Positions 17,486-27,881 of a DNA stretch of 42,550 nt are shown piece by piece. This DNA is from Holosporales bacterium. Lineage in GTDB: Bacteria > Pseudomonadota > Alphaproteobacteria > BNTO01. A program made the translations under genes and the position numbers. The DNA lies in assembly GCA_031273545.1 (NCBI GenBank), contig JAISRQ010000078.1, forward strand, positions 1-42,550. The letters run 5' to 3'. The notes beneath the pieces were generated by a model. That model was given only the letters and a program-made list of their open reading frames with translations, had not been told where the DNA came from and did no database searches. The first letter of the stretch is position 1. The number at the start of each line of letters is the position of its first letter.

Positions 17486-18505
17486 TTACCCCTTCCTCAA
17501 CATGCCAAACTCCACAAGCTTATCAACAATCTGAACAGCATTAAGCGCCGCCCCCTTACGAATATTGTCGCTCACAACCCACATCTGATACCACCTCTGG
17601 CGATACGGATCCTTGCGCAAGCGGCTAACATACACGTCGTCATCCCCCTCAATGTCCAGCGGAGTCACGTACGAGTTCCTCTTGAGAGTAACCCCAGGAA
17701 AGTCATTTAACGCCACTTCTAGCTCCACCAACGGAACATCGTGGGTCAGCTCTAACGTAACTGCCTCACTGTGCCCACGGACCACAGGAACGCGAACACA
17801 CGTCGCAAAAACATCAACACTATGCTGCAGTATCTTTTGCGTCTCCATAACCATCTTCCATTCTTCTTTTGTTTCTCCTGTTGGCAAAAAAACATCTATC
17901 TGAGGAATAACATTGTAAGCAATTGGGCAAGGAAAACGTTCAACAGTTTGATCCCCTGCGATTTGCTTTCGCAGTTCTAACTCAGCCAACCTTCCTGCTC
18001 CTGAAACAGATTGATACGTAGATACAATGACTGTGCGTAACCTGGAAACGCGATCAATCGGCTGCAACGCCATAAGCATTTGTATTGTAGAGCAATTGGG
18101 GTTCGCAATTATGTTCCGCTTGGCTTGCTTTATGGTGGACGCATTTATTTCCGGTATAACCAAAGGAACATCCGGGTCCATGCGAAAAAATGACGTATTA
18201 TCAACAACCCAACACCCAAGAGCAGCAGCTTTCGGCGCAAAAACAGACGACACCTTTGCCCCAGGTGAAAATAAGCCAACCTGACATTGAGAAAAATCGA
18301 ATGAATCCAAGTCATGAAGGGTTAATTGCGCATCGCCATATTGCAGAGTTTTTCCGATGGAACGTTCTGATGCTATAACGAAAATATTGCCATAGGGAAC
18401 ATTTCTTTCATGCAATATCTTTAAAAATTCTTGACCAACATTTCCTGTTGCGCCAACGATGGCAAACTTAATTTCTGAAAAAGGTAACATACTGGGTAAC
18501 TCCAT
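17486..18505 (-). CDS. asd: Aspartate-semialdehyde dehydrogenase. A start at ATG 18490, with GGAG 9 nt upstream, is plausible.
   Basis: 'KFAIVGATGNVGQ', 'IANPNCSTI', 'STYQSVSGAG'. About 335-339 aa. Confidence 0.9.
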   Translation of the reverse strand: MELPSMLPFSEIKFAIVGATGNVGQEFLKILHERNVPYGNIFVIASERSIGKTLQYGDAQLTLHDLDSFDFSQCQVGLFSPGAKVSSVFAPKAAALGCWVVDNTSFFRMDPDVPLVIPEINASTIKQAKRNIIANPNCSTIQMLMALQPIDRVSRLRTVIVSTYQSVSGAGRLAELELRKQIAGDQTVERFPCPIAYNVIPQIDVFLPTGETKEEWKMVMETQKILQHSVDVFATCVRVPVVRGHSEAVTLELTHDVPLVELEVALNDFPGVTLKRNSYVTPLDIEGDDDVYVSRLRKDPYRQRWYQMWVVSDNIRKGAALNAVQIVDKLVEFGMLRKG

Positions 18506-18589
18506 AAAATAATATAATTTATATATATAATATTTTGTTGTTGTTGTTGTACCCTGTTGATAACGTTGGTAAGTTTTTTATAAACAGGG

Positions 18590-18786
18590 TTATCCACATT
18601 TTAGGGTTAGCCTGTTTCTTTGTTTTTGATTAGTTATCCACAGACTGTTTGTAAACTTTTGATCTGTGGAGTGTTTCTTGTTAAAGCTGTGAAAAGTACG
18701 AAGTTGTTCACAGTTTTGATTTTTTCGATATTTTCAACAAAGTTTTGTATGAGTTATCATGCATGTTATCCACAGAGTTATTCACA
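18590..18786 (+). promoter_or_regulatory. DnaA-box cluster (candidate oriC or another DnaA-binding locus).
   Basis: Perfect TTATCCACA at 18590-18598, 18634-18642 and 18766-18774. TTATTCACA at 18778-18786 and TTGTTCACA at 18704-18712. All are in the same orientation. An AT-rich tract at 18506-18550 and the hairpin accctgtt/aacagggt at 18551-18590 lie alongside. Confidence 0.55.
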
Positions 18787-18844
18787 CGTATGTTTTGTTG
18801 AAAATATTGCGTACCTAAACCACTTCGTATTTGACTAGCTATTC

Positions 18845-20305
18845 TTACGGTGCAGCAGGCTGAGTATCTGCGACAGGCTGAGTATCTGTAATGGCGGGCT
18901 GAGTCTCGGCTATAACCTGAGTGTCCGTGGTTGCTGGCTGAGTCTCTGCAACCACTTGATTTTCTGTAAGTGCAGGCTGAGTTTCCGCAATTGCAGGTTG
19001 AGTCTCTGTGGTTTCGGGCTTAGTATTCGCAGTGGCGAGCTGGATCTCTGTTGCAGGTTGGGTTTCTGTCGTCACGGAGGTCTCCGTAGTTGCAGGTTGA
19101 GTATCCGTGGTTGCAGGTGAGGTATCCGTGGCTGCAGGTTGAGTCTCCGTAGTTGCAGGTGGAGTATCCGTAGTTGCAGGTGGAGTATCCGTCGTCACGG
19201 AGGTCTCCGTAGTTGCAGGTTGAGTCTCCGTAGTTGCAGATTTAGCTTTCGCGATAGCACGTTTTGCTTCTACTATTTCCTTTCGAATCTTCGCGTTCCT
19301 GAGTATGTCGCTTACGTGGCTAGGGTTATATAGTATGGGGTACGCCTGGCAATTCAAATCAGGCACAACCGTCCACTCTGATTCAGGAGTAGCGATGTCG
19401 GCTATGTACATTAATTGGTCATCAATAAATATTATTTTTTTTGGTAATGCTAGTAATCCATCTTTTATTGCATTTATTACTGCTCGTCCTTTAGATGTTA
19501 TGGTAACACCTTCAACGGGAAGGCGTTTTTCAGGTTTTTGTCTTGTTTCGTCAAAGAAGACCTTTTTTCCGTTCTGCATTGTGTAGGAACGAGATACGTA
19601 TATGATATCGTGTTCTATGTCCATCATGGCATGTTTTCCATCTTGACAATCTATGTAGCGCAACCTATCCCCTTGGTATTCATTGTCCGATGCAAAGCCT
19701 AATTCCTTTAGTTGTGTTGCTCTAGCACGACAGGATCCGCTATCTCCGCCGGTTACCATAATGATCTTGCATCCAGATTTTCTCCATTTGTTTAGTGCTT
19801 CTTTTGCTAATGGTGATTCATATCGATCTTGGGGCCTAGGAGTTTTAGATATGTCTTTTTTTACAAGTACTCCGTCAACGTCAAACGCAATCAATGTTTC
19901 TTGAGGTGAGTTATCTATAGCTTTGTCGATTTCTTCAATGAGTTTTTCCCACGAATAAACAGTATGAAAAATATTATCTCTATTTTCTTCCGTTAGTTCC
20001 ATGCCCTTAGAAACGCCGTGTGATTCACAAATGTCGACGATCTCTGATTGTTCTACGTCGTTGTATTTCATTGTTCTATTTGATCTCGGAGCAAATATGT
20101 TCAAAAGAACATTGTTCCAGTAGAGATATGGTGAAGTATCTTTAGTTGCAGCTACTGGAGCGGACGGAGTTGTTGTTGTGGATGTTGCAGGACTGCTTGT
20201 TGTAGGAGTCTCGTTTGTTGTAGGGTTACTGCCAGTTGCGAATGAGACTTGGCAAAGTAACCCAAGAAAAATGCTAGTATTATTGAATTTTGTTTTATTT
20301 GTCAT
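18845..20305 (-). CDS. Secreted HAD-superfamily phosphatase-like protein with Thr/Pro-rich N- and C-terminal repeat regions.
   Basis: Signal peptide 'IFLGLLCQVSFATG'. HAD motif I 'AFDVDGVLV', 'IIMVTGGDSG', 'KIIFIDDQ'. The C-terminal ~130 aa consist of 7-aa TETQPAT-type repeats. Confidence 0.65.
   Translation of the reverse strand: MTNKTKFNNTSIFLGLLCQVSFATGSNPTTNETPTTSSPATSTTTTPSAPVAATKDTSPYLYWNNVLLNIFAPRSNRTMKYNDVEQSEIVDICESHGVSKGMELTEENRDNIFHTVYSWEKLIEEIDKAIDNSPQETLIAFDVDGVLVKKDISKTPRPQDRYESPLAKEALNKWRKSGCKIIMVTGGDSGSCRARATQLKELGFASDNEYQGDRLRYIDCQDGKHAMMDIEHDIIYVSRSYTMQNGKKVFFDETRQKPEKRLPVEGVTITSKGRAVINAIKDGLLALPKKIIFIDDQLMYIADIATPESEWTVVPDLNCQAYPILYNPSHVSDILRNAKIRKEIVEAKRAIAKAKSATTETQPATTETSVTTDTPPATTDTPPATTETQPAATDTSPATTDTQPATTETSVTTETQPATEIQLATANTKPETTETQPAIAETQPALTENQVVAETQPATTDTQVIAETQPAITDTQPVADTQPAAP
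18848..19238. repeat. Imperfect 21-bp tandem repeats (coding; TETQPAT units).
   Basis: The period gttgcaggttgagtctccgta and its variants repeat through the 3' end of the HAD-like gene. Confidence 0.85.
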
Positions 20306-20389
20306 GATGTGTGCTCTTTATCTATAGGAATGCTAATCGCTTTATTTGTGAATTGTAAAAAATGTTAAATGTGTTTGCATTATTTATTA

Positions 20390-20794
20390 CTATAGCCTTC
20401 TGATTTTGTCTAGCCACTGTTTTCTTAATGAAATGCAGTTTGCTCTGTGCGAAATTTCATATACTGTGACGCGTGCCACTACGTTTGATATGGCTTCGTT
20501 TGATGTTCTCGCGTACAGAACTAGCGGTCCGCGATATAGTATAAGATTTTTAACATTGCTGTCGTTATGCATTTTATATAAGCCAAGGAGCTCGTTTTTA
20601 TTTTTTACGCGCAGCTCATTCAGAACTTCGATAGGCGCGAAGTTTTCTATAATAATCTGGGTGTCGCTTAGTGCGCTTTGAATCTTCGCAGGGCAACAAC
20701 GCAATGCGTTGGTTGCATATTCTTTAATCTGCTTAAGACACGGTACATCAAAAACTACGTTCGTCATGTTCATCCCACAAAGATTGGAATCCAT
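20390..20794 (-). CDS. Zincin-like (DUF1025 / PF06262-like) small protein with a degenerate HExxH motif. The start is possibly at 20767.
   Basis: It aligns by eye along its length with alphaproteobacterial DUF1025 proteins ('IIIENFAPIEVLNEL...ELLGLY', 'LILYRGPLVLY'). The family 'HEIGHH' position reads 'YEISHR'. Confidence 0.5.
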   Translation of the reverse strand: MDSNLCGMNMTNVVFDVPCLKQIKEYATNALRCCPAKIQSALSDTQIIIENFAPIEVLNELRVKNKNELLGLYKMHNDSNVKNLILYRGPLVLYARTSNEAISNVVARVTVYEISHRANCISLRKQWLDKIRRL

Positions 20795-20858
20795 AAACTA
20801 AGTATACGAACAAATGTATTAACAAAACGTGTGCGCGAACGCGTTTTTTCCATAAAAA

Positions 20859-22106
20859 TCATCGCTTTTGTGTAATTTCGGCTCTGTTTATTTCGAAAAA
20901 TTGGGCGCTTTTCATAGGGTTGAAGGGGTCTATATCCGTTCCCGAAAAAAAAGTTTGTACGTGAGCTGTATTCGCACTTCCCTTGTTTAATTGTTCGACT
21001 TGTTCAAATAAAACCATACGATGCGCGTGGTCAAGGCGAGCAATCACGTCATCTAGCAACAACATAAGGAATCCGTCGAGCGTTTGGATCTTTTGGTGAA
21101 CAAACGACAAAATTGTCGATATTAGTAAAATTTTTTGTTCTCCTGTGGAGCATTCCTTTGCGCAGCGATTTTTTGTCTTATGTGTGACGTCAAAGTCACT
21201 TCGATGGCACCCGAAGGTTGTCATGCCTGTGAGGCGGTCTGTTTCTCTGTTTTTGTGTAATATATCTCTGAATACTGTTTCGATAGTATTGATATTACCA
21301 TTTAAATTGGTGATAAGTCCATTATCTATTTTGTTTAATTCGTCTTCAACTCTTCCTATTATTTTGCACAAGAATTGAGGAAATAGTGGTACGTGATCTT
21401 TTTGTCCGTCCATCAACCGTTGCGTCAGCTTTGTTCTTGATTTTGCTATTTTTATATTTTGTTGTGCCATGATTTTTTCTAAAGAGTCTAGCCACATTAG
21501 ATCTGGGTTTTGTGATTTTTTTAGTAAAGTTAATCGTTGGTGTGTTGCTTTTTCGTATATCGACAGCGCTTCCATGTGCGTAGGGTCATATGACTCGATT
21601 AGGCGGTCGACGAAGCGTCTGCGTTCACTTGAGGCATTGGTAAAAATGTGATCCATATCAGGAGTAATGTGAATTATGCTTGCGTAGTCATGAAATTTGG
21701 CGGCACTTTTTACTGGGGCTCCTTGAATTTTACAGATGCGGCGAGCCCCTTGGTAACCTGTGGCGAGGATGGTTTCGTCGTTGAGGGTGGCGGTGATCGC
21801 CCATGGTGACACGGCGGCGGATGGAGATGATGCTGTGGATGGTGATGCGGGTAGTGGCGCCTCTAGGTGCTTTGGTGACTCTTCTGGTTTCGATTCGCAT
21901 TCATCGTGAGCCTCGGTATATGCAAGCTCTTGTAATTTCGCCCCTCGGAACCCTGTCCCTACTGCAAAAAGCGAAAAAGCTTCCATCAAGTTTGTTTTTC
22001 CTGACCCATTTTTTCCGTACAGCACAACCGGATATGAATCAAACGATACTTCCGCATGTTTGTAATTACGAAAATTGTGAACCACTATTTGTTTAAAAAA
22101 ATTCAT
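20859..22106 (-). CDS. recF: DNA replication and repair protein RecF, with a ~33-aa low-complexity insertion.
   Basis: 'NFRNY', Walker A 'GKNGSGKTNLMEA', 'STGEQK', Walker B 'LLLLDDV'. 415 aa. Confidence 0.9.
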   Translation of the reverse strand: MNFFKQIVVHNFRNYKHAEVSFDSYPVVLYGKNGSGKTNLMEAFSLFAVGTGFRGAKLQELAYTEAHDECESKPEESPKHLEAPLPASPSTASSPSAAVSPWAITATLNDETILATGYQGARRICKIQGAPVKSAAKFHDYASIIHITPDMDHIFTNASSERRRFVDRLIESYDPTHMEALSIYEKATHQRLTLLKKSQNPDLMWLDSLEKIMAQQNIKIAKSRTKLTQRLMDGQKDHVPLFPQFLCKIIGRVEDELNKIDNGLITNLNGNINTIETVFRDILHKNRETDRLTGMTTFGCHRSDFDVTHKTKNRCAKECSTGEQKILLISTILSFVHQKIQTLDGFLMLLLDDVIARLDHAHRMVLFEQVEQLNKGSANTAHVQTFFSGTDIDPFNPMKSAQFFEINRAEITQKR

Positions 22107-22152
22107 ACACTACTGAAAATTCGATACTCCTCTAAACTCCGGAATGCGATCA

Positions 22153-23112
22153 TCAAGCTACTTCGATTTCTCTTTCCACTTCAACATCTCTTTTGTTTAA
22201 GTCAATCGCTTGTTCTATTAAATTAACCAACTCCATATCAACTTCCAAATTCATAGGAAACACATGAATTTGATGTTTCATTTTTTTTGACAAAAACGGC
22301 GCATCTTTGTCGCTTGTAACAAGAATCCCGCCACTTGAGGACGCCATCTTTAGTATAACTTGAAGTTGCTTTTCTTGGCGTTGTAAATGAAGAAGTGGAA
22401 TGAACCCTTTTATATTGTATTTATGTTTTAAGAGCGAGTGGTAAAACGCCCCAGAATCATGCAAGCCCGTAAACCCAAATATATTTACATCCTGCGTGAT
22501 ATTTTGATGAGGAATACTCCATTTTGCAGAGTAGACAGCGCGGTACACTTGTTTCAATTCTTGGATATTTTCCGGCACAAGTGAAACGATAGCGTCCGAC
22601 TTTGCTAACATGTTTGATGCATATGCATTTGTACCGATATTTCGCTCAACCAACGCAACAGAAAAGCTAAAAAGGTGATCATCGCGTTCGGATCGTTCAT
22701 TTAACAGAAGAATGGTAGCCCCTGCATGTGCGGCTGCGAGTGCGGCATTCCGTGGCGAGCTACACACCCAAGTGGGGATCTTTTGGCTCAAAATAAATGC
22801 TTCCTCATTAATCCCGTTTGGGGAAGTCGGTGCAGTTAGTAACCGTGCTTGACGAGCGTGCGCTCCTTTGGACCACACATGCGGCTTATGCCCGCGCAAT
22901 GTCAGCTGCTCGGCCAACGTGAGGATGATGCCCATTTTCTCGGCCACCATAGTCGATTTATCTACGCTATCAATTACTATTATCGGAATCGGGATAGAAA
23001 TCCTGGATTTTTGGCGTGTGCTTTCTTTTAGGTGCCTAGACACAAAAATCACACAGCGCTTTCGACATTGCCGAATAAAAAACGCTATTTTTCCTTTGAT
23101 CTGCAACATCAC
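22153..23112 (-). CDS. LpxK-like (tetraacyldisaccharide 4'-kinase family) protein with degenerate catalytic motifs. It may be a pseudoenzyme or a decaying gene.
   Basis: The architecture is collinear with LpxK: 'FGFTGLHDSGAFYHSL' against 'GIG.P..FF..L', and 'LVTSDKDAPF' against 'TEKDAVK' at the same distance from the C-terminus. The P-loop position reads 'VIDSVDKSTMVAE' where LpxK has 'VGN...GG.GKTP'. RGYGG, GDEP and DDG.QH are also lost. Confidence 0.5.
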   Translation of the reverse strand: MMLQIKGKIAFFIRQCRKRCVIFVSRHLKESTRQKSRISIPIPIIVIDSVDKSTMVAEKMGIILTLAEQLTLRGHKPHVWSKGAHARQARLLTAPTSPNGINEEAFILSQKIPTWVCSSPRNAALAAAHAGATILLLNERSERDDHLFSFSVALVERNIGTNAYASNMLAKSDAIVSLVPENIQELKQVYRAVYSAKWSIPHQNITQDVNIFGFTGLHDSGAFYHSLLKHKYNIKGFIPLLHLQRQEKQLQVILKMASSSGGILVTSDKDAPFLSKKMKHQIHVFPMNLEVDMELVNLIEQAIDLNKRDVEVEREIEVA

Positions 23113-23447
23113 GCTCGTACTTCACCAATGCCTGGTTTTAAAGGGTATCGTAGCCGGCTGTAAATATCAATATCGTTAAGAAGATATTCTGATTTTTGTA
23201 ATCTTTTTGCGCGTCTGATGTGTTTCTTAAAAAAAAGTTTGCAAAAATCTAAAAAAAACATTGCGTCCATCGGTAAAAAGGTTGTATATTGCATTCTAGG
23301 TTGGTTGAGAGACCAACGCTAAAGTTCTTCCCCCTAAAAGAACTGCCTCCTTCGCTTTGCGGGGGAGGTCTTGTCGTACCCGTGTTTTGTCTCTGTGCTG
23401 GGTCGTTCGGTTGTTCTGCACCGCCTTCAAATTTATTGCGAAATCTG

Positions 23448-23477
23448 TTGAGTATTTGTGTGGTTGTGTGTTATAAA
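23448..23477 (+). promoter_or_regulatory. Candidate sigma70-type promoter for carD/cdnL.
   Basis: TTGAGT (23448-23453), an 18-nt spacer, then TATAAA (23472-23477), about 115 nt upstream of ATG 23594. Confidence 0.25.
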
Positions 23478-23593
23478 TAAGCATTCGCAGCGCATCTGGT
23501 TCTTGTTCGAAGAACATAATATTGGAGCGTTTTGGGTGCTTTTGTAGAGAACTACATAAGGCGGTTGTGTTGTTGTTTTCTGAGGCGGGCAGT

Positions 23594-24091
23594 ATGATTT
23601 CAAAAGAGTCCATCACGATCGGTGATTTTGTCGTATATCCAGCGCACGGTGTTGGCAAGTTAATTGACATAGAAGAGCATGATATATGCGGAACAAACGT
23701 AGAATTATTTGTGATTGAATTTACTAAAGACCATATGGTTTTGAAGTTGCCGCTACAAAAGGCGTGTAGTTCAGGGCTTCGTCCTATTTGCGGAAAAGAA
23801 GAGATGGATTTGGCGCTGGAGTCGTTAGGGACGAAGTCTCGAAAGAAGAAGGCGATGTGGAACCGTAGGGCTCAGGAGTACGAAAGCAAGATTAATTCCG
23901 GAAAAATAAGTTCGCTGGCTGATGTGATACGCGAGCTGCATACTCCTCAGGATGCAGGCGACCAGTCTTATAGCGAGCGTCAGATTTACCAAATAGCGTT
24001 GGACCGCTTTGTTCGCGAGCTTTGCATTGTTGAAGAAGTCGATGAAGGGACTGCATCAAAGAAAGTTCAGGAAATGCTTGGCGTTGCGTAA
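23594..24091 (+). CDS. carD: CarD/CdnL-family RNA-polymerase-binding transcription factor. I place the start at ATG 23594.
   Basis: 'GDFVVYPAHGVGKLIDIEE...ELFVIEF' is the CarD N-terminal Tudor-like domain. GAGG lies upstream of ATG 23594, and the resulting 165 aa is typical. Confidence 0.8.
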   Translation: MISKESITIGDFVVYPAHGVGKLIDIEEHDICGTNVELFVIEFTKDHMVLKLPLQKACSSGLRPICGKEEMDLALESLGTKSRKKKAMWNRRAQEYESKINSGKISSLADVIRELHTPQDAGDQSYSERQIYQIALDRFVRELCIVEEVDEGTASKKVQEMLGVA

Positions 24092-26028: not shown

Positions 26029-26598
26029 ATGAATTTTATTAATTACCCAATGCAGATCAAGTCACTGGATCAAACTGGTGCTCTTGAGGGCTATGCAAGC
26101 GTTTTCGGCACTGTCGACTTGCAGAACGAAGTAGTCCAACCGGGCGCATTTGAAGCGTCATTGGCGACATGGAAGCAAAACTCTTGTTTCCCGAAAATGC
26201 TGTGGCAGCACGATCCAAAGTCCCCCATAGGCGTGTGGGATGACATGTTCGAGGACCAATATGGCTTGTATGTTAGGGGCCGCTTGCTTTTGGACCTTCA
26301 GAAAGGGCGCGACGCATATTCGCTGATAAAAAGCGGCGCGGTGGATGGGTTGTCTATTGGTTTTATGCCAAAGCAATCACACAAAGACGGCGACGTTCGC
26401 GTATTGGATGAAGTCGATTTATTTGAGGTGTCGCTTGTCACTTTTATGGCGAATCCCCTTGCGAAGGTGACGTCTTGCAAACACTGGAGCGACGCATATG
26501 ATCAGACGATTTATTTGATGAACCGCCTGAAATCGCTGAAGCGGGCGATGGACAAAACAGATTGGCATGTAAAAAGTTTAATGATGGAGCAAGTTTAA
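26029..26598 (+). CDS. HK97-family phage prohead (maturation) protease.
   Basis: 'LEGYASVFGTVDLQNEVVQPGAF', 'MLWQHD...PIGVW', 'GLYVRGRL', 'VDGLSIGF', 'LFEVSLVTFMANP'. AGGAGA lies upstream of the ATG. Confidence 0.85.
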   Translation: MNFINYPMQIKSLDQTGALEGYASVFGTVDLQNEVVQPGAFEASLATWKQNSCFPKMLWQHDPKSPIGVWDDMFEDQYGLYVRGRLLLDLQKGRDAYSLIKSGAVDGLSIGFMPKQSHKDGDVRVLDEVDLFEVSLVTFMANPLAKVTSCKHWSDAYDQTIYLMNRLKSLKRAMDKTDWHVKSLMMEQV

Positions 26599-27881
26599 TG
26601 AACAACAAATCTTTTAATGTGGACGTTGAGAGGCTCGACCCTCCAAATATAAAGTCTACACTTGGGGCCTCAATGAATGCGGACCAGAAACCTAATGATA
26701 GCAAGCATTTGTCCTGCTCAAATTCCCACAATAATTTGGGGAATGGGTCTACAACGAGAAATTCGTTCCTATCTAAGATGGACGAAATTATTACAGACAT
26801 AGAAAAATCTATTTCAGAATTCAACACTTCAAAGGAGCACGATATGTTAAATCAGTCAAACACAAGCAATTCATTTGCAAGCAATTCAAACACAAATAAT
26901 TCGGCAGAAAAACCGCACGCTACTTTATATGCAGAAAAACCGTATTCCACGCAAAAGGCCTTCATAAATTACTTAGCAAAAGGCGAAATGAACTTCGAGT
27001 CAAAGGGACACCTCCTGAGTCGCGATGAAAACAACGGCGGCTACCTTGTTCCAGGGGCGACCATGGCGCAGATCGACGCACGCATGAAGTATTTGTGCCC
27101 TCTTCGATCGTTGGCAAAAGTAGACACAATCAAAAGCGAATCCCTTGAATTGTTAATCGACAAAGGTGCGACGGATGCTGGGTGGATGTTAACGGACGAG
27201 CTAACGGACGGAGGCTATCCTGATTTGACGAAAATAAAAATTCAAACGCATCCGCTTTATGCAAAGCCCAGAGCGAGCCAAAAAATTTTGGATGACGTGG
27301 GCGACGCACTTGAAGAGTGGATCATAGCGAAAATTGCTCAAAAAGTGGCCGCAATCGAAAATCATGCATTTTTATACGGAGACGGAGACCGTAAACCGAA
27401 AGGAATATTGGCGTACCCTATGGTGCCGATTGGGGACGGCGACTGGGAAAAAATTGAATGCGTCGACTCAAAAGCAATTTCGCGCAACAGCCTCTTAAAT
27501 ATCGTAGGCGCACTTAAGTCTGAATATTTGCAAAATGCGACATGGCTAATGTCGCGCAGTGCGTTCACGGCAATTCAACAAATAACCGACGAGTTAGGGC
27601 GGTTCTTGTGGCAACCAGCGCTTGTATCTGGAGCGCCATCATGCTTACTTGGGTACCCCGTGGTTGTATCAGACGATATGCCTAAAGTTGAAGATAACAG
27701 CACACCAATCTTATTTGGAGACTTTGCTAGTACATATCAGATTGTGGACCGCGGCGAAATTAGCGTACTAAGAGACCCGTACAGCGCAAAACCGTATGTC
27801 GAATTTTATGCAACAAGACGCGTCGGCGGAGATGTTGTAAATTTTGACTCGGTTAAAGCGCTGTGCATTCGCGACGGATAG
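26598..27881 (+). CDS. HK97-family phage/GTA-type major capsid protein. The start is ATG 26598, overlapping the protease stop in TAATG.
   Basis: 'NNGGYLVPGATMAQI...LCPLRSLA', 'WQPALVSGAPSCLLGYPVVVSDDMP', 'ILFGDFASTYQIVDR'. The N-terminal ~115 aa are Asn/Ser-rich and delta-domain-like. Confidence 0.85.
   Translation: MNNKSFNVDVERLDPPNIKSTLGASMNADQKPNDSKHLSCSNSHNNLGNGSTTRNSFLSKMDEIITDIEKSISEFNTSKEHDMLNQSNTSNSFASNSNTNNSAEKPHATLYAEKPYSTQKAFINYLAKGEMNFESKGHLLSRDENNGGYLVPGATMAQIDARMKYLCPLRSLAKVDTIKSESLELLIDKGATDAGWMLTDELTDGGYPDLTKIKIQTHPLYAKPRASQKILDDVGDALEEWIIAKIAQKVAAIENHAFLYGDGDRKPKGILAYPMVPIGDGDWEKIECVDSKAISRNSLLNIVGALKSEYLQNATWLMSRSAFTAIQQITDELGRFLWQPALVSGAPSCLLGYPVVVSDDMPKVEDNSTPILFGDFASTYQIVDRGEISVLRDPYSAKPYVEFYATRRVGGDVVNFDSVKALCIRDG

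Follow-up and report, generated by a model that had tools for sequence, protein, structure and literature searches.

Known origins and the candidate locus

Linkage to marker genes is common among bacterial replication origins but does not define them. The datA and DARS sites have, to our knowledge, no adjacent unwinding element and no skew switch. The open duplex-unwinding element (DUE) of Escherichia coli is stabilised by DnaA at R1/R5M, which captures TT[A/G]T(T) motifs in the T-rich strand (PMC10325909). In the E. coli oriC sequence, which we took directly from NC_000913.3, the T-rich upper strand carries, from 5' to 3', the 13-mers (GATCTnTTnTTTT...), GCACTGCCC and TGTGGATAA (R1), with R2 (TTATACACA) and R4 (TTATCCACA) in the opposite orientation. 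The basal unwinding system (BUS) of the Bacillus subtilis type consists of tandem DnaA boxes, a GC cluster, DnaA-trios (3'-GAT-5') and an AT-rich region (PMC8287927, PMC6669920). Under the DnaA-trio rule, a box (up to two mismatches) must have at least three 3'-NAN-5' triplets in succession no more than 16 bp away, and they must be on the strand that has its 5' end distal to the box (PMC8287927). The origins of Caulobacter, Rickettsia and Wolbachia have hemE as a boundary gene and contain DnaA, CtrA and IHF sites (PMC1914354). We found no literature report that places an origin in the Holosporales.

The window analysed here is an entire contig (C144; 42,550 nt) of a fragmented metagenome-assembled genome, G000 (1.28 Mb in 160 contigs, 74% complete). 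The closest named relatives of its asd gene are found in 'Holosporales bacterium' MAGs and in the closed chromosome of 'Alphaproteobacteria bacterium LL52' (CP165730.1; 1.326 Mb), here called G004, which was analysed as a whole chromosome. The asd contigs of five other family genomes (G001, G002, G006, G007 and G009) were used as replicates, and the asd proteins are 65-67% identical between the family genomes compared.

The spacer upstream of asd (about 18491/18506 to 18844) is, judging from its sequence and that of its relatives, likely to be the chromosomal oriC of this Holosporales-like alphaproteobacterium. The candidate origin is very probably of the ordinary DnaA-dependent kind at an address untypical for alphaproteobacteria, beside asd, away from dnaA and without hemE. 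The features of the region are as follows (window positions).

17486-18505, minus strand: asd, aspartate-semialdehyde dehydrogenase (NCBIfam NF011456, 403 bits; cut-off 223)
18506-18844: spacer of 339 nt between asd and the HAD-like gene
18506-18534, no strand assigned: AT-rich tract, candidate DUE, abutting the annotated asd start codon
18535-18549, plus strand: (TTG)5 run, in which four TTGTT motifs overlap; candidate site of DnaA binding to the single-stranded T-rich strand
18550-18554, plus strand: TACCC spacer, with CCC directly 5' of the inverted box
18555-18563, minus strand: inverted DnaA box TTATCAACA, one mismatch, reading TGTTGATAA on the plus strand; R1-like, faces the AT tract
18578-18598, plus strand: tandem box pair TTATAAACA-ggg-TTATCCACA, two mismatches and perfect, 3-nt spacer
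18634-18642, plus strand: DnaA box TTATCCACA, perfect
18704-18712, plus strand: weak DnaA box TTGTTCACA, two mismatches
18766-18786, plus strand: tandem box pair TTATCCACA-gag-TTATTCACA, perfect and one mismatch
18845-20305, minus strand: HAD-like hydrolase gene (Pfam Hydrolase_6), right-hand neighbour, not kept in relatives
20859-22106, minus strand: recF (TIGR00611, 205.8 bits; cut-off 172), at a distance of 2.07 kb from the last box

Sequence elements of the spacer

Seven DnaA-box 9-mers lie within 232 nt, three of them perfect, two with one mismatch and two with two mismatches. The original prediction had listed perfect TTATCCACA boxes at 18590, 18634 and 18766, a one-mismatch box at 18778 and a two-mismatch box at 18704, and all five were recovered on the plus strand. 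These five share one orientation, as stated there; the inverted box at 18555-18563 had been overlooked, as had the two-mismatch box at 18578-18586. An inverted TGTGGAgtg at 18666, counted there as a weak match, has three mismatches and is negligible. The spacer measures 1 nt less than the 340 nt originally given, between the flanking genes that had been named.

Also present as described are the AT-rich stretch and the (TTG)5 run that follows it. A+T content reaches 97% over the 32 nt beyond the asd start codon, and 20 nt separate the AT tract from the nearest box. The (TTG)5 run occurs once in the whole assembly, where windows with at least four TT[AG]T starts have a frequency of 2e-5 per position. 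The stem of the proposed 8-bp hairpin exists as well, ACCCTGTT at 18551-18558 pairing with AACAGGGT at 18583-18590, but the fold is modest (dG -7.3 kcal/mol, z -1.9, with equal folding in 6 of 200 shuffles). We therefore do not retain the hairpin as a structural element, as it is marginal against shuffles, and its arms are better read as two inverted box-like 9-mers.

The spacer contains no CtrA site (TTAA-N7-TTAA), no IHF consensus and no GANTC, and a single GATC; the nearest IHF consensus match, at 18949-18961, is inside the HAD-like gene. An Rfam scan of the spacer returned no lysine riboswitch and no other known RNA family or asd leader, its sole match, to snoR13 (E = 0.52), being attributable to chance. 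A simple sigma-70 and terminator scan of the spacer gave no asd-strand promoter and no terminator. The asd gene is transcribed away from the spacer and is the conserved left-hand neighbour of the candidate origin. Its second ATG (18490), which is preceded by GGAG, may be the real start codon.

Comparison with described origins

The order of elements on the T-rich strand resembles that of E. coli oriC: an AT-rich DUE, TT[G/A]T motifs, CCC, TGTnGATAA, and then boxes of the form TTATnCACA in the opposite orientation, like R2 and R4. The polarity is identical, and so is the box consensus, TTATCCACA. The context of the inverted box, CCCTGTTGATAAC, is also close to that of R1, CCCTGTGGATAAC, with 12 of 13 positions identical over CCCTGTtGATAAC. 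By sequence the spacer has what defines an E. coli-type element for recruitment of the single-stranded DUE, namely four overlapping TTGTT motifs 5 nt from an R1-oriented box, and the G-to-A changes in the T/G-rich elements of G001 and G002 preserve TT[A/G]T. The locus differs from E. coli oriC in having a single DUE-facing box in place of an R5M/tau/I array, no IHF consensus between the boxes, one GATC against eleven, and asd and the HAD-like gene as neighbours instead of gidA and mioC. Moreover, no more than 5 nt lie between the box and the T-rich motif, which is a perfect trinucleotide repeat.

The arrangement likewise recalls the B. subtilis type: a box, a short G/C spacer, an element of trinucleotide periodicity and an AT tract follow one another, tandem boxes are 3 nt apart, and the strand bearing the periodic element has its 5' end directed away from the box. 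The repeat itself differs, reading 3'-GTT-5' with T where the trio rule wants a central adenine. At the (TTG)5 end the triplets are 3'-CAT-5' followed by five of 3'-GTT-5', so that only TAC has a central A. The trio rule is thus not satisfied at this end, and we do not class the element as a BUS despite its same position and trinucleotide periodicity. A trio match at the far end of the spacer (18792-18800, minus strand) was discarded, since the pattern is permissive and the match is absent in G002.

The organism belongs to the same class as Caulobacter, Rickettsia and Wolbachia, and the locus is, like their origins, an intergenic DnaA-box cluster away from dnaA. It differs from those origins in having asd as its boundary gene and in lacking hemE, CtrA and IHF sites, and GANTC.

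Box density and origin landmarks

The original claim that the box cluster exceeds chance is borne out, as the spacer is by far the densest site of the assembly. The 1.28-Mb assembly contains 36 perfect boxes where base composition predicts 13.5, and the other contigs carry at most two each, never clustered. Scoring perfect boxes as 2 and one-mismatch boxes as 1 and summing within 400 nt gave 8 for the asd spacer and at most 3 for every separate locus in the assembly, which at 74% completeness leaves room for a stronger cluster in the missing quarter. If up to two mismatches are allowed, box density is 26.5 per kb for the spacer and 3.8 per kb for the window as a whole.

No boxes were found upstream of dnaA on contig C41 (595 aa, TIGR00362) or beside dnaA at the corresponding junction of the closed chromosome G004. 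Two clusters tie for best in G004, of which the one directly upstream of asd is the best intergenic cluster. Its rival, at 1,123,289, was rejected as a coding artefact, being located inside an open reading frame of Tyr-Pro-Gln repeats (TAT-CCA-CAn). The Gln/Pro/Tyr-rich repeat protein encoded there (1,123,008-1,124,624) has YPQ codons that mimic a DnaA-box cluster, a trap for origin finders that count boxes.

None of the typical origin markers (dnaA, dnaN, hemE, parAB, gidAB) is beside the spacer. Only recF is near, at the distance of about 2 kb originally noted, and it passes the curated NCBIfam cut-off. The asd site of G004 is 170 kb away from dnaA and some 71 kb from parAB. hemE (uroporphyrinogen decarboxylase, PF01208) was undetectable in the whole genomes of G000, G001, G002 and G004, so that this lineage is without the gene that classically marks alphaproteobacterial origins. 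Sites of the parS type were considered as markers of origin proximity and set aside, as both of those in G000 are on contig C111 and allow no placement relative to C144. On C111 (1015-2704), parA-parB is followed at once by these two sites, TGTTTCACGTGAAACA and TGTTTCACGTGAAACG, 27 nt apart. G004 has parAB and no parS within two mismatches of the consensus.

The G000 dnaA gene (locus L001 on C41, 850-2637, minus strand) encodes a protein that owes its length to ~150-200 inserted residues separating domain I from the AAA+ domain. The inserted segment is of low complexity with DSSK/DSSR-type repeats, and the G004 orthologue aligns only from residue 243.

An asd-linked module conserved in the family

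Conservation of the boxes in relatives was found in the form of a module that recurs, across genera, upstream of asd in seven other family genomes (G001, G002, G004, G005, G006, G007 and G009). Counted from the asd start, the common layout is an AT tract of 25-45 nt, a T/G-rich 15-mer, a spacer of 4-5 nt, an inverted box and tandem boxes. The AT tract is at the same place in seven of the eight family genomes, as is the tandem pair of two boxes with a 3-nt spacer. An inverted box occupies the same position in G002, G004, G005, G006, G007 and G009, and the gap between it and the tandem pair measures some 13-15 nt, or 4-5 nt for G004 and G009. The T/G-rich 15-mer is (TTG)5 here and in G005, TTGTTATGGTTGTTG in G001 and TTGTTGTTATTGTTG in G002, with variants in G006 and G007. 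In G002 the counterpart of the tandem pair at 18766-18786 is TTATTCACGgagTTATTCACA. By BLAST, the part comprising the AT tract and the TTGTT motifs is the best-conserved stretch of the spacer, with 79% identity to G001 over nt 1-97.

The tandem-box pattern TTATNNACANNNTTATNNACA has 11 matches in ten family genomes and none in a reversed control. Of these matches, five lie immediately upstream of asd, and the G006 asd contig has one more. To the right of the spacer, G001 has a different, divergent gene in place of the HAD-like gene, which looks xerC/D-like from its N-terminal sequence. As the far-side neighbour varies while asd stays, the module travels with asd.

Tandem-box loci elsewhere in the family (G005:C78, G008:C20, the G009 repeats and the G006 site downstream of tatD) have no AT/TTGTT module. 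The locus on G008:C20 is near a MatE gene. On G005:C78 (L164, 2304-2383), four DnaA boxes, three of them in a 12-nt register, lie in an intergenic region by phage baseplate and tail genes (BW3TFN, DUF4815); they may represent a phage promoter under DnaA control or the origin of a prophage. A near-identical element of ~400 nt with three TTATTCACA boxes is found on both C83 and C113 of G009 (L167, 1783-1979; L168, 343-539). In G006, a second cluster of three boxes, TTATCCACAgagTTATCCACAtatttCGTGGATAA (C82:8843-8877; L166, 3844-3878), is on the far side of asd-tatD, ~2.1 kb from the cluster upstream of asd; a bipartite origin flanking asd is a possibility in that genome.

Strand asymmetry at the spacer

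The cumulative curves of the window turn at the spacer. G-C has its minimum at 18457, and the maximum of A-T and the minimum of (G+T)-(A+C) both fall within the AT tract, at 18517. The (G+T)-(A+C) curve traces a clean V, from -1 through -1163 to +566, and its size of 1409 is the largest of all contigs, the others reaching at most 542. The sequence is G+T-poor to the left of the spacer and G+T-rich to the right, which is the polarity of an origin and not of a terminus.

Length-normalised kinks similar to that of C144 occur in some 10-kb contigs from gene orientation alone, and third-codon-position skews were therefore corrected for the coding strand, with the correction of the GC3-AT3 index estimated on contigs other than C144. 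The best change point of the corrected index falls exactly at the 18505/18845 boundary (-0.216 left versus +0.122 right, t = 4.0, permutation p = 0.026). Leaving out asd and counting nothing but 4-fold degenerate sites gives -0.092 versus +0.071 (p = 0.0011). The steepest corrected values belong to three genes on each side of the spacer, and the signal is carried by the housekeeping genes asd and recF too, beyond the orphan genes.

In G001, G002, G006, G007 and G009, the keto-skew minimum of the contig is likewise in the asd-upstream spacer or within 500 nt of it. Pooled over these five relatives, the strand-corrected index is -0.140 (n=23) versus +0.099 (n=60; p = 9e-6). The stricter 4-fold test without asd gave p = 0.008 for the pooled relatives, with the direction kept in four of the five and G007 flat. 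In G001 and G002 the positive arm has more minus-strand coding bases, so gene orientation is not the cause.

The closed chromosome G004 shows no two-replichore pattern in GC skew, AT skew, GC3/AT3, gene orientation or the corrected index, and its skew thus neither places nor excludes an origin at asd. Gene order is thoroughly scrambled between G000 and G004. That a closed chromosome of 1.33 Mb is essentially without replication-associated skew or orientation bias could reflect very frequent rearrangement or an assembly problem.

Alternative explanations

An unlikely alternative is that the boxes form a DnaA-controlled asd promoter and no origin, with DnaA repressing or activating asd and thereby tying the supply of diaminopimelate and lysine precursors to the replication cycle. 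The cluster is directly upstream of asd, where the asd promoter must be, and is linked to it in seven genomes in which the far neighbour and the wider synteny are scrambled. The family also has tandem pairs at sites that are not origins, by the G005 phage tail genes and in the duplicated G009 element. Against this, seven boxes over about 230 nt go far beyond the needs of known DnaA-regulated promoters, and the sigma-70 scan found no promoter on the asd strand of the spacer. A promoter would leave unexplained both the skew switch, in the window and in relatives, and the unwinding layout of an R1-like box, TTGTT repeats and an AT tract. Neither G000 nor closed G004 offers an alternative origin candidate. 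The AT tract must contain the asd promoter or border on it, so the site could serve as both origin and asd promoter.

Still less probable is a datA- or DARS-like site for DnaA titration or reactivation, located near the origin without being it, an option that the original prediction had mentioned. The dense cluster of high-affinity boxes would suit such a site, and in an incomplete MAG the true origin might be unassembled. The skew extremum inside the AT tract is, however, foreign to datA and DARS, as is an unwinding element, and here conservation within the spacer is highest in the AT tract and its TTGTT module. The spacer also has no IHF consensus, and the closed chromosome G004 has nothing better elsewhere. 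We give very little credence to the remaining alternative, that the skew switch stems from atypical flanking genes or from the breakpoint of a recent inversion or rearrangement, and that a box cluster is there by chance. The scrambled synteny between G000 and G004, the strongest skew coming from three genes on each side, and the incoherent skew of G004 would agree with it, but most of the five other genomes, where the neighbours differ, have a switch of the same polarity at this spacer too, and asd and recF, which are housekeeping genes, carry the signal besides the orphan genes.

The interpretation of the spacer as a chromosomal origin, as first predicted, is supported by a cluster that is unique in the assembly, the skew switch here and in most relatives, the conserved DUE-like module, and the lack of a cluster beside dnaA. 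The traits of a DnaA-dependent oriC are found together at this site: the strongest cluster of a 74%-complete assembly, an adjacent AT-rich element, a skew switch and a conserved layout.

Proposed mechanism and implications

We propose that DnaA would bind the seven 9-mers seen in the spacer, and that the R1-like box at 18555 and the adjoining tandem pair would nucleate a DnaA oligomer. By analogy with recruitment of the single-stranded DUE in E. coli, this oligomer could capture the T-rich plus strand at the TTGTT repeats (18535-18549). Such strand capture would help to keep the 29-nt AT tract (18506-18534) open, and the helicase would be loaded there, again as in E. coli. The remaining boxes, all in the same orientation, might act like the middle and right DnaA-oligomerisation regions of E. 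coli. Forks would then depart bidirectionally from the spacer, and their leaving both ways would account for the switch in strand composition. More speculatively, asd transcription and initiation may affect each other, given that the unwinding region must include or adjoin the asd promoter.

A tentative extension, which we regard as rather doubtful, is that the family's single-strand recognition element is (TTG)n, that is 3'-GTT-5', at the position of the DnaA-trio with T in place of a central adenine supposed to be invariant, so that the code by which DnaA reads single-stranded DNA would have a variant specific to this lineage, and that the origin is fused to the asd promoter. If true, the (TTG)n variant would link the Bacillus 'trio' and the E. 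coli TT[G/A]T(T) views of origin opening, and the fusion could couple the synthesis of cell-wall and lysine precursors to initiation. The (TTG)n element beside an R1-like box could in any case serve as a natural variant for probing which single-stranded bases DnaA needs.

The candidate would provide a well-supported origin annotation for an uncultured Holosporales lineage without the usual landmarks (hemE, CtrA sites, dnaA linkage). As a family-level marker, the asd-linked module could help in orienting fragmented MAGs and in growth-rate (peak-to-trough) estimates.

Other features of the window

The five genes immediately to the right of the spacer (18845-23670) would be met head-on by a fork moving rightward, as proposed. 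In the HAD-like gene, the first of these, the C-terminal third contains a tandem-repeat array with a 21-nt (7-residue) unit (18855-19239, 72-81% matches). Further along the window, amid housekeeping genes, is a gene for an HK97-type major capsid protein (26562-27881; Pfam Phage_capsid, E = 1.8e-66). It could be a remnant of a prophage or a gene-transfer agent, and an orthologue is found at 1.25 Mb in G004.
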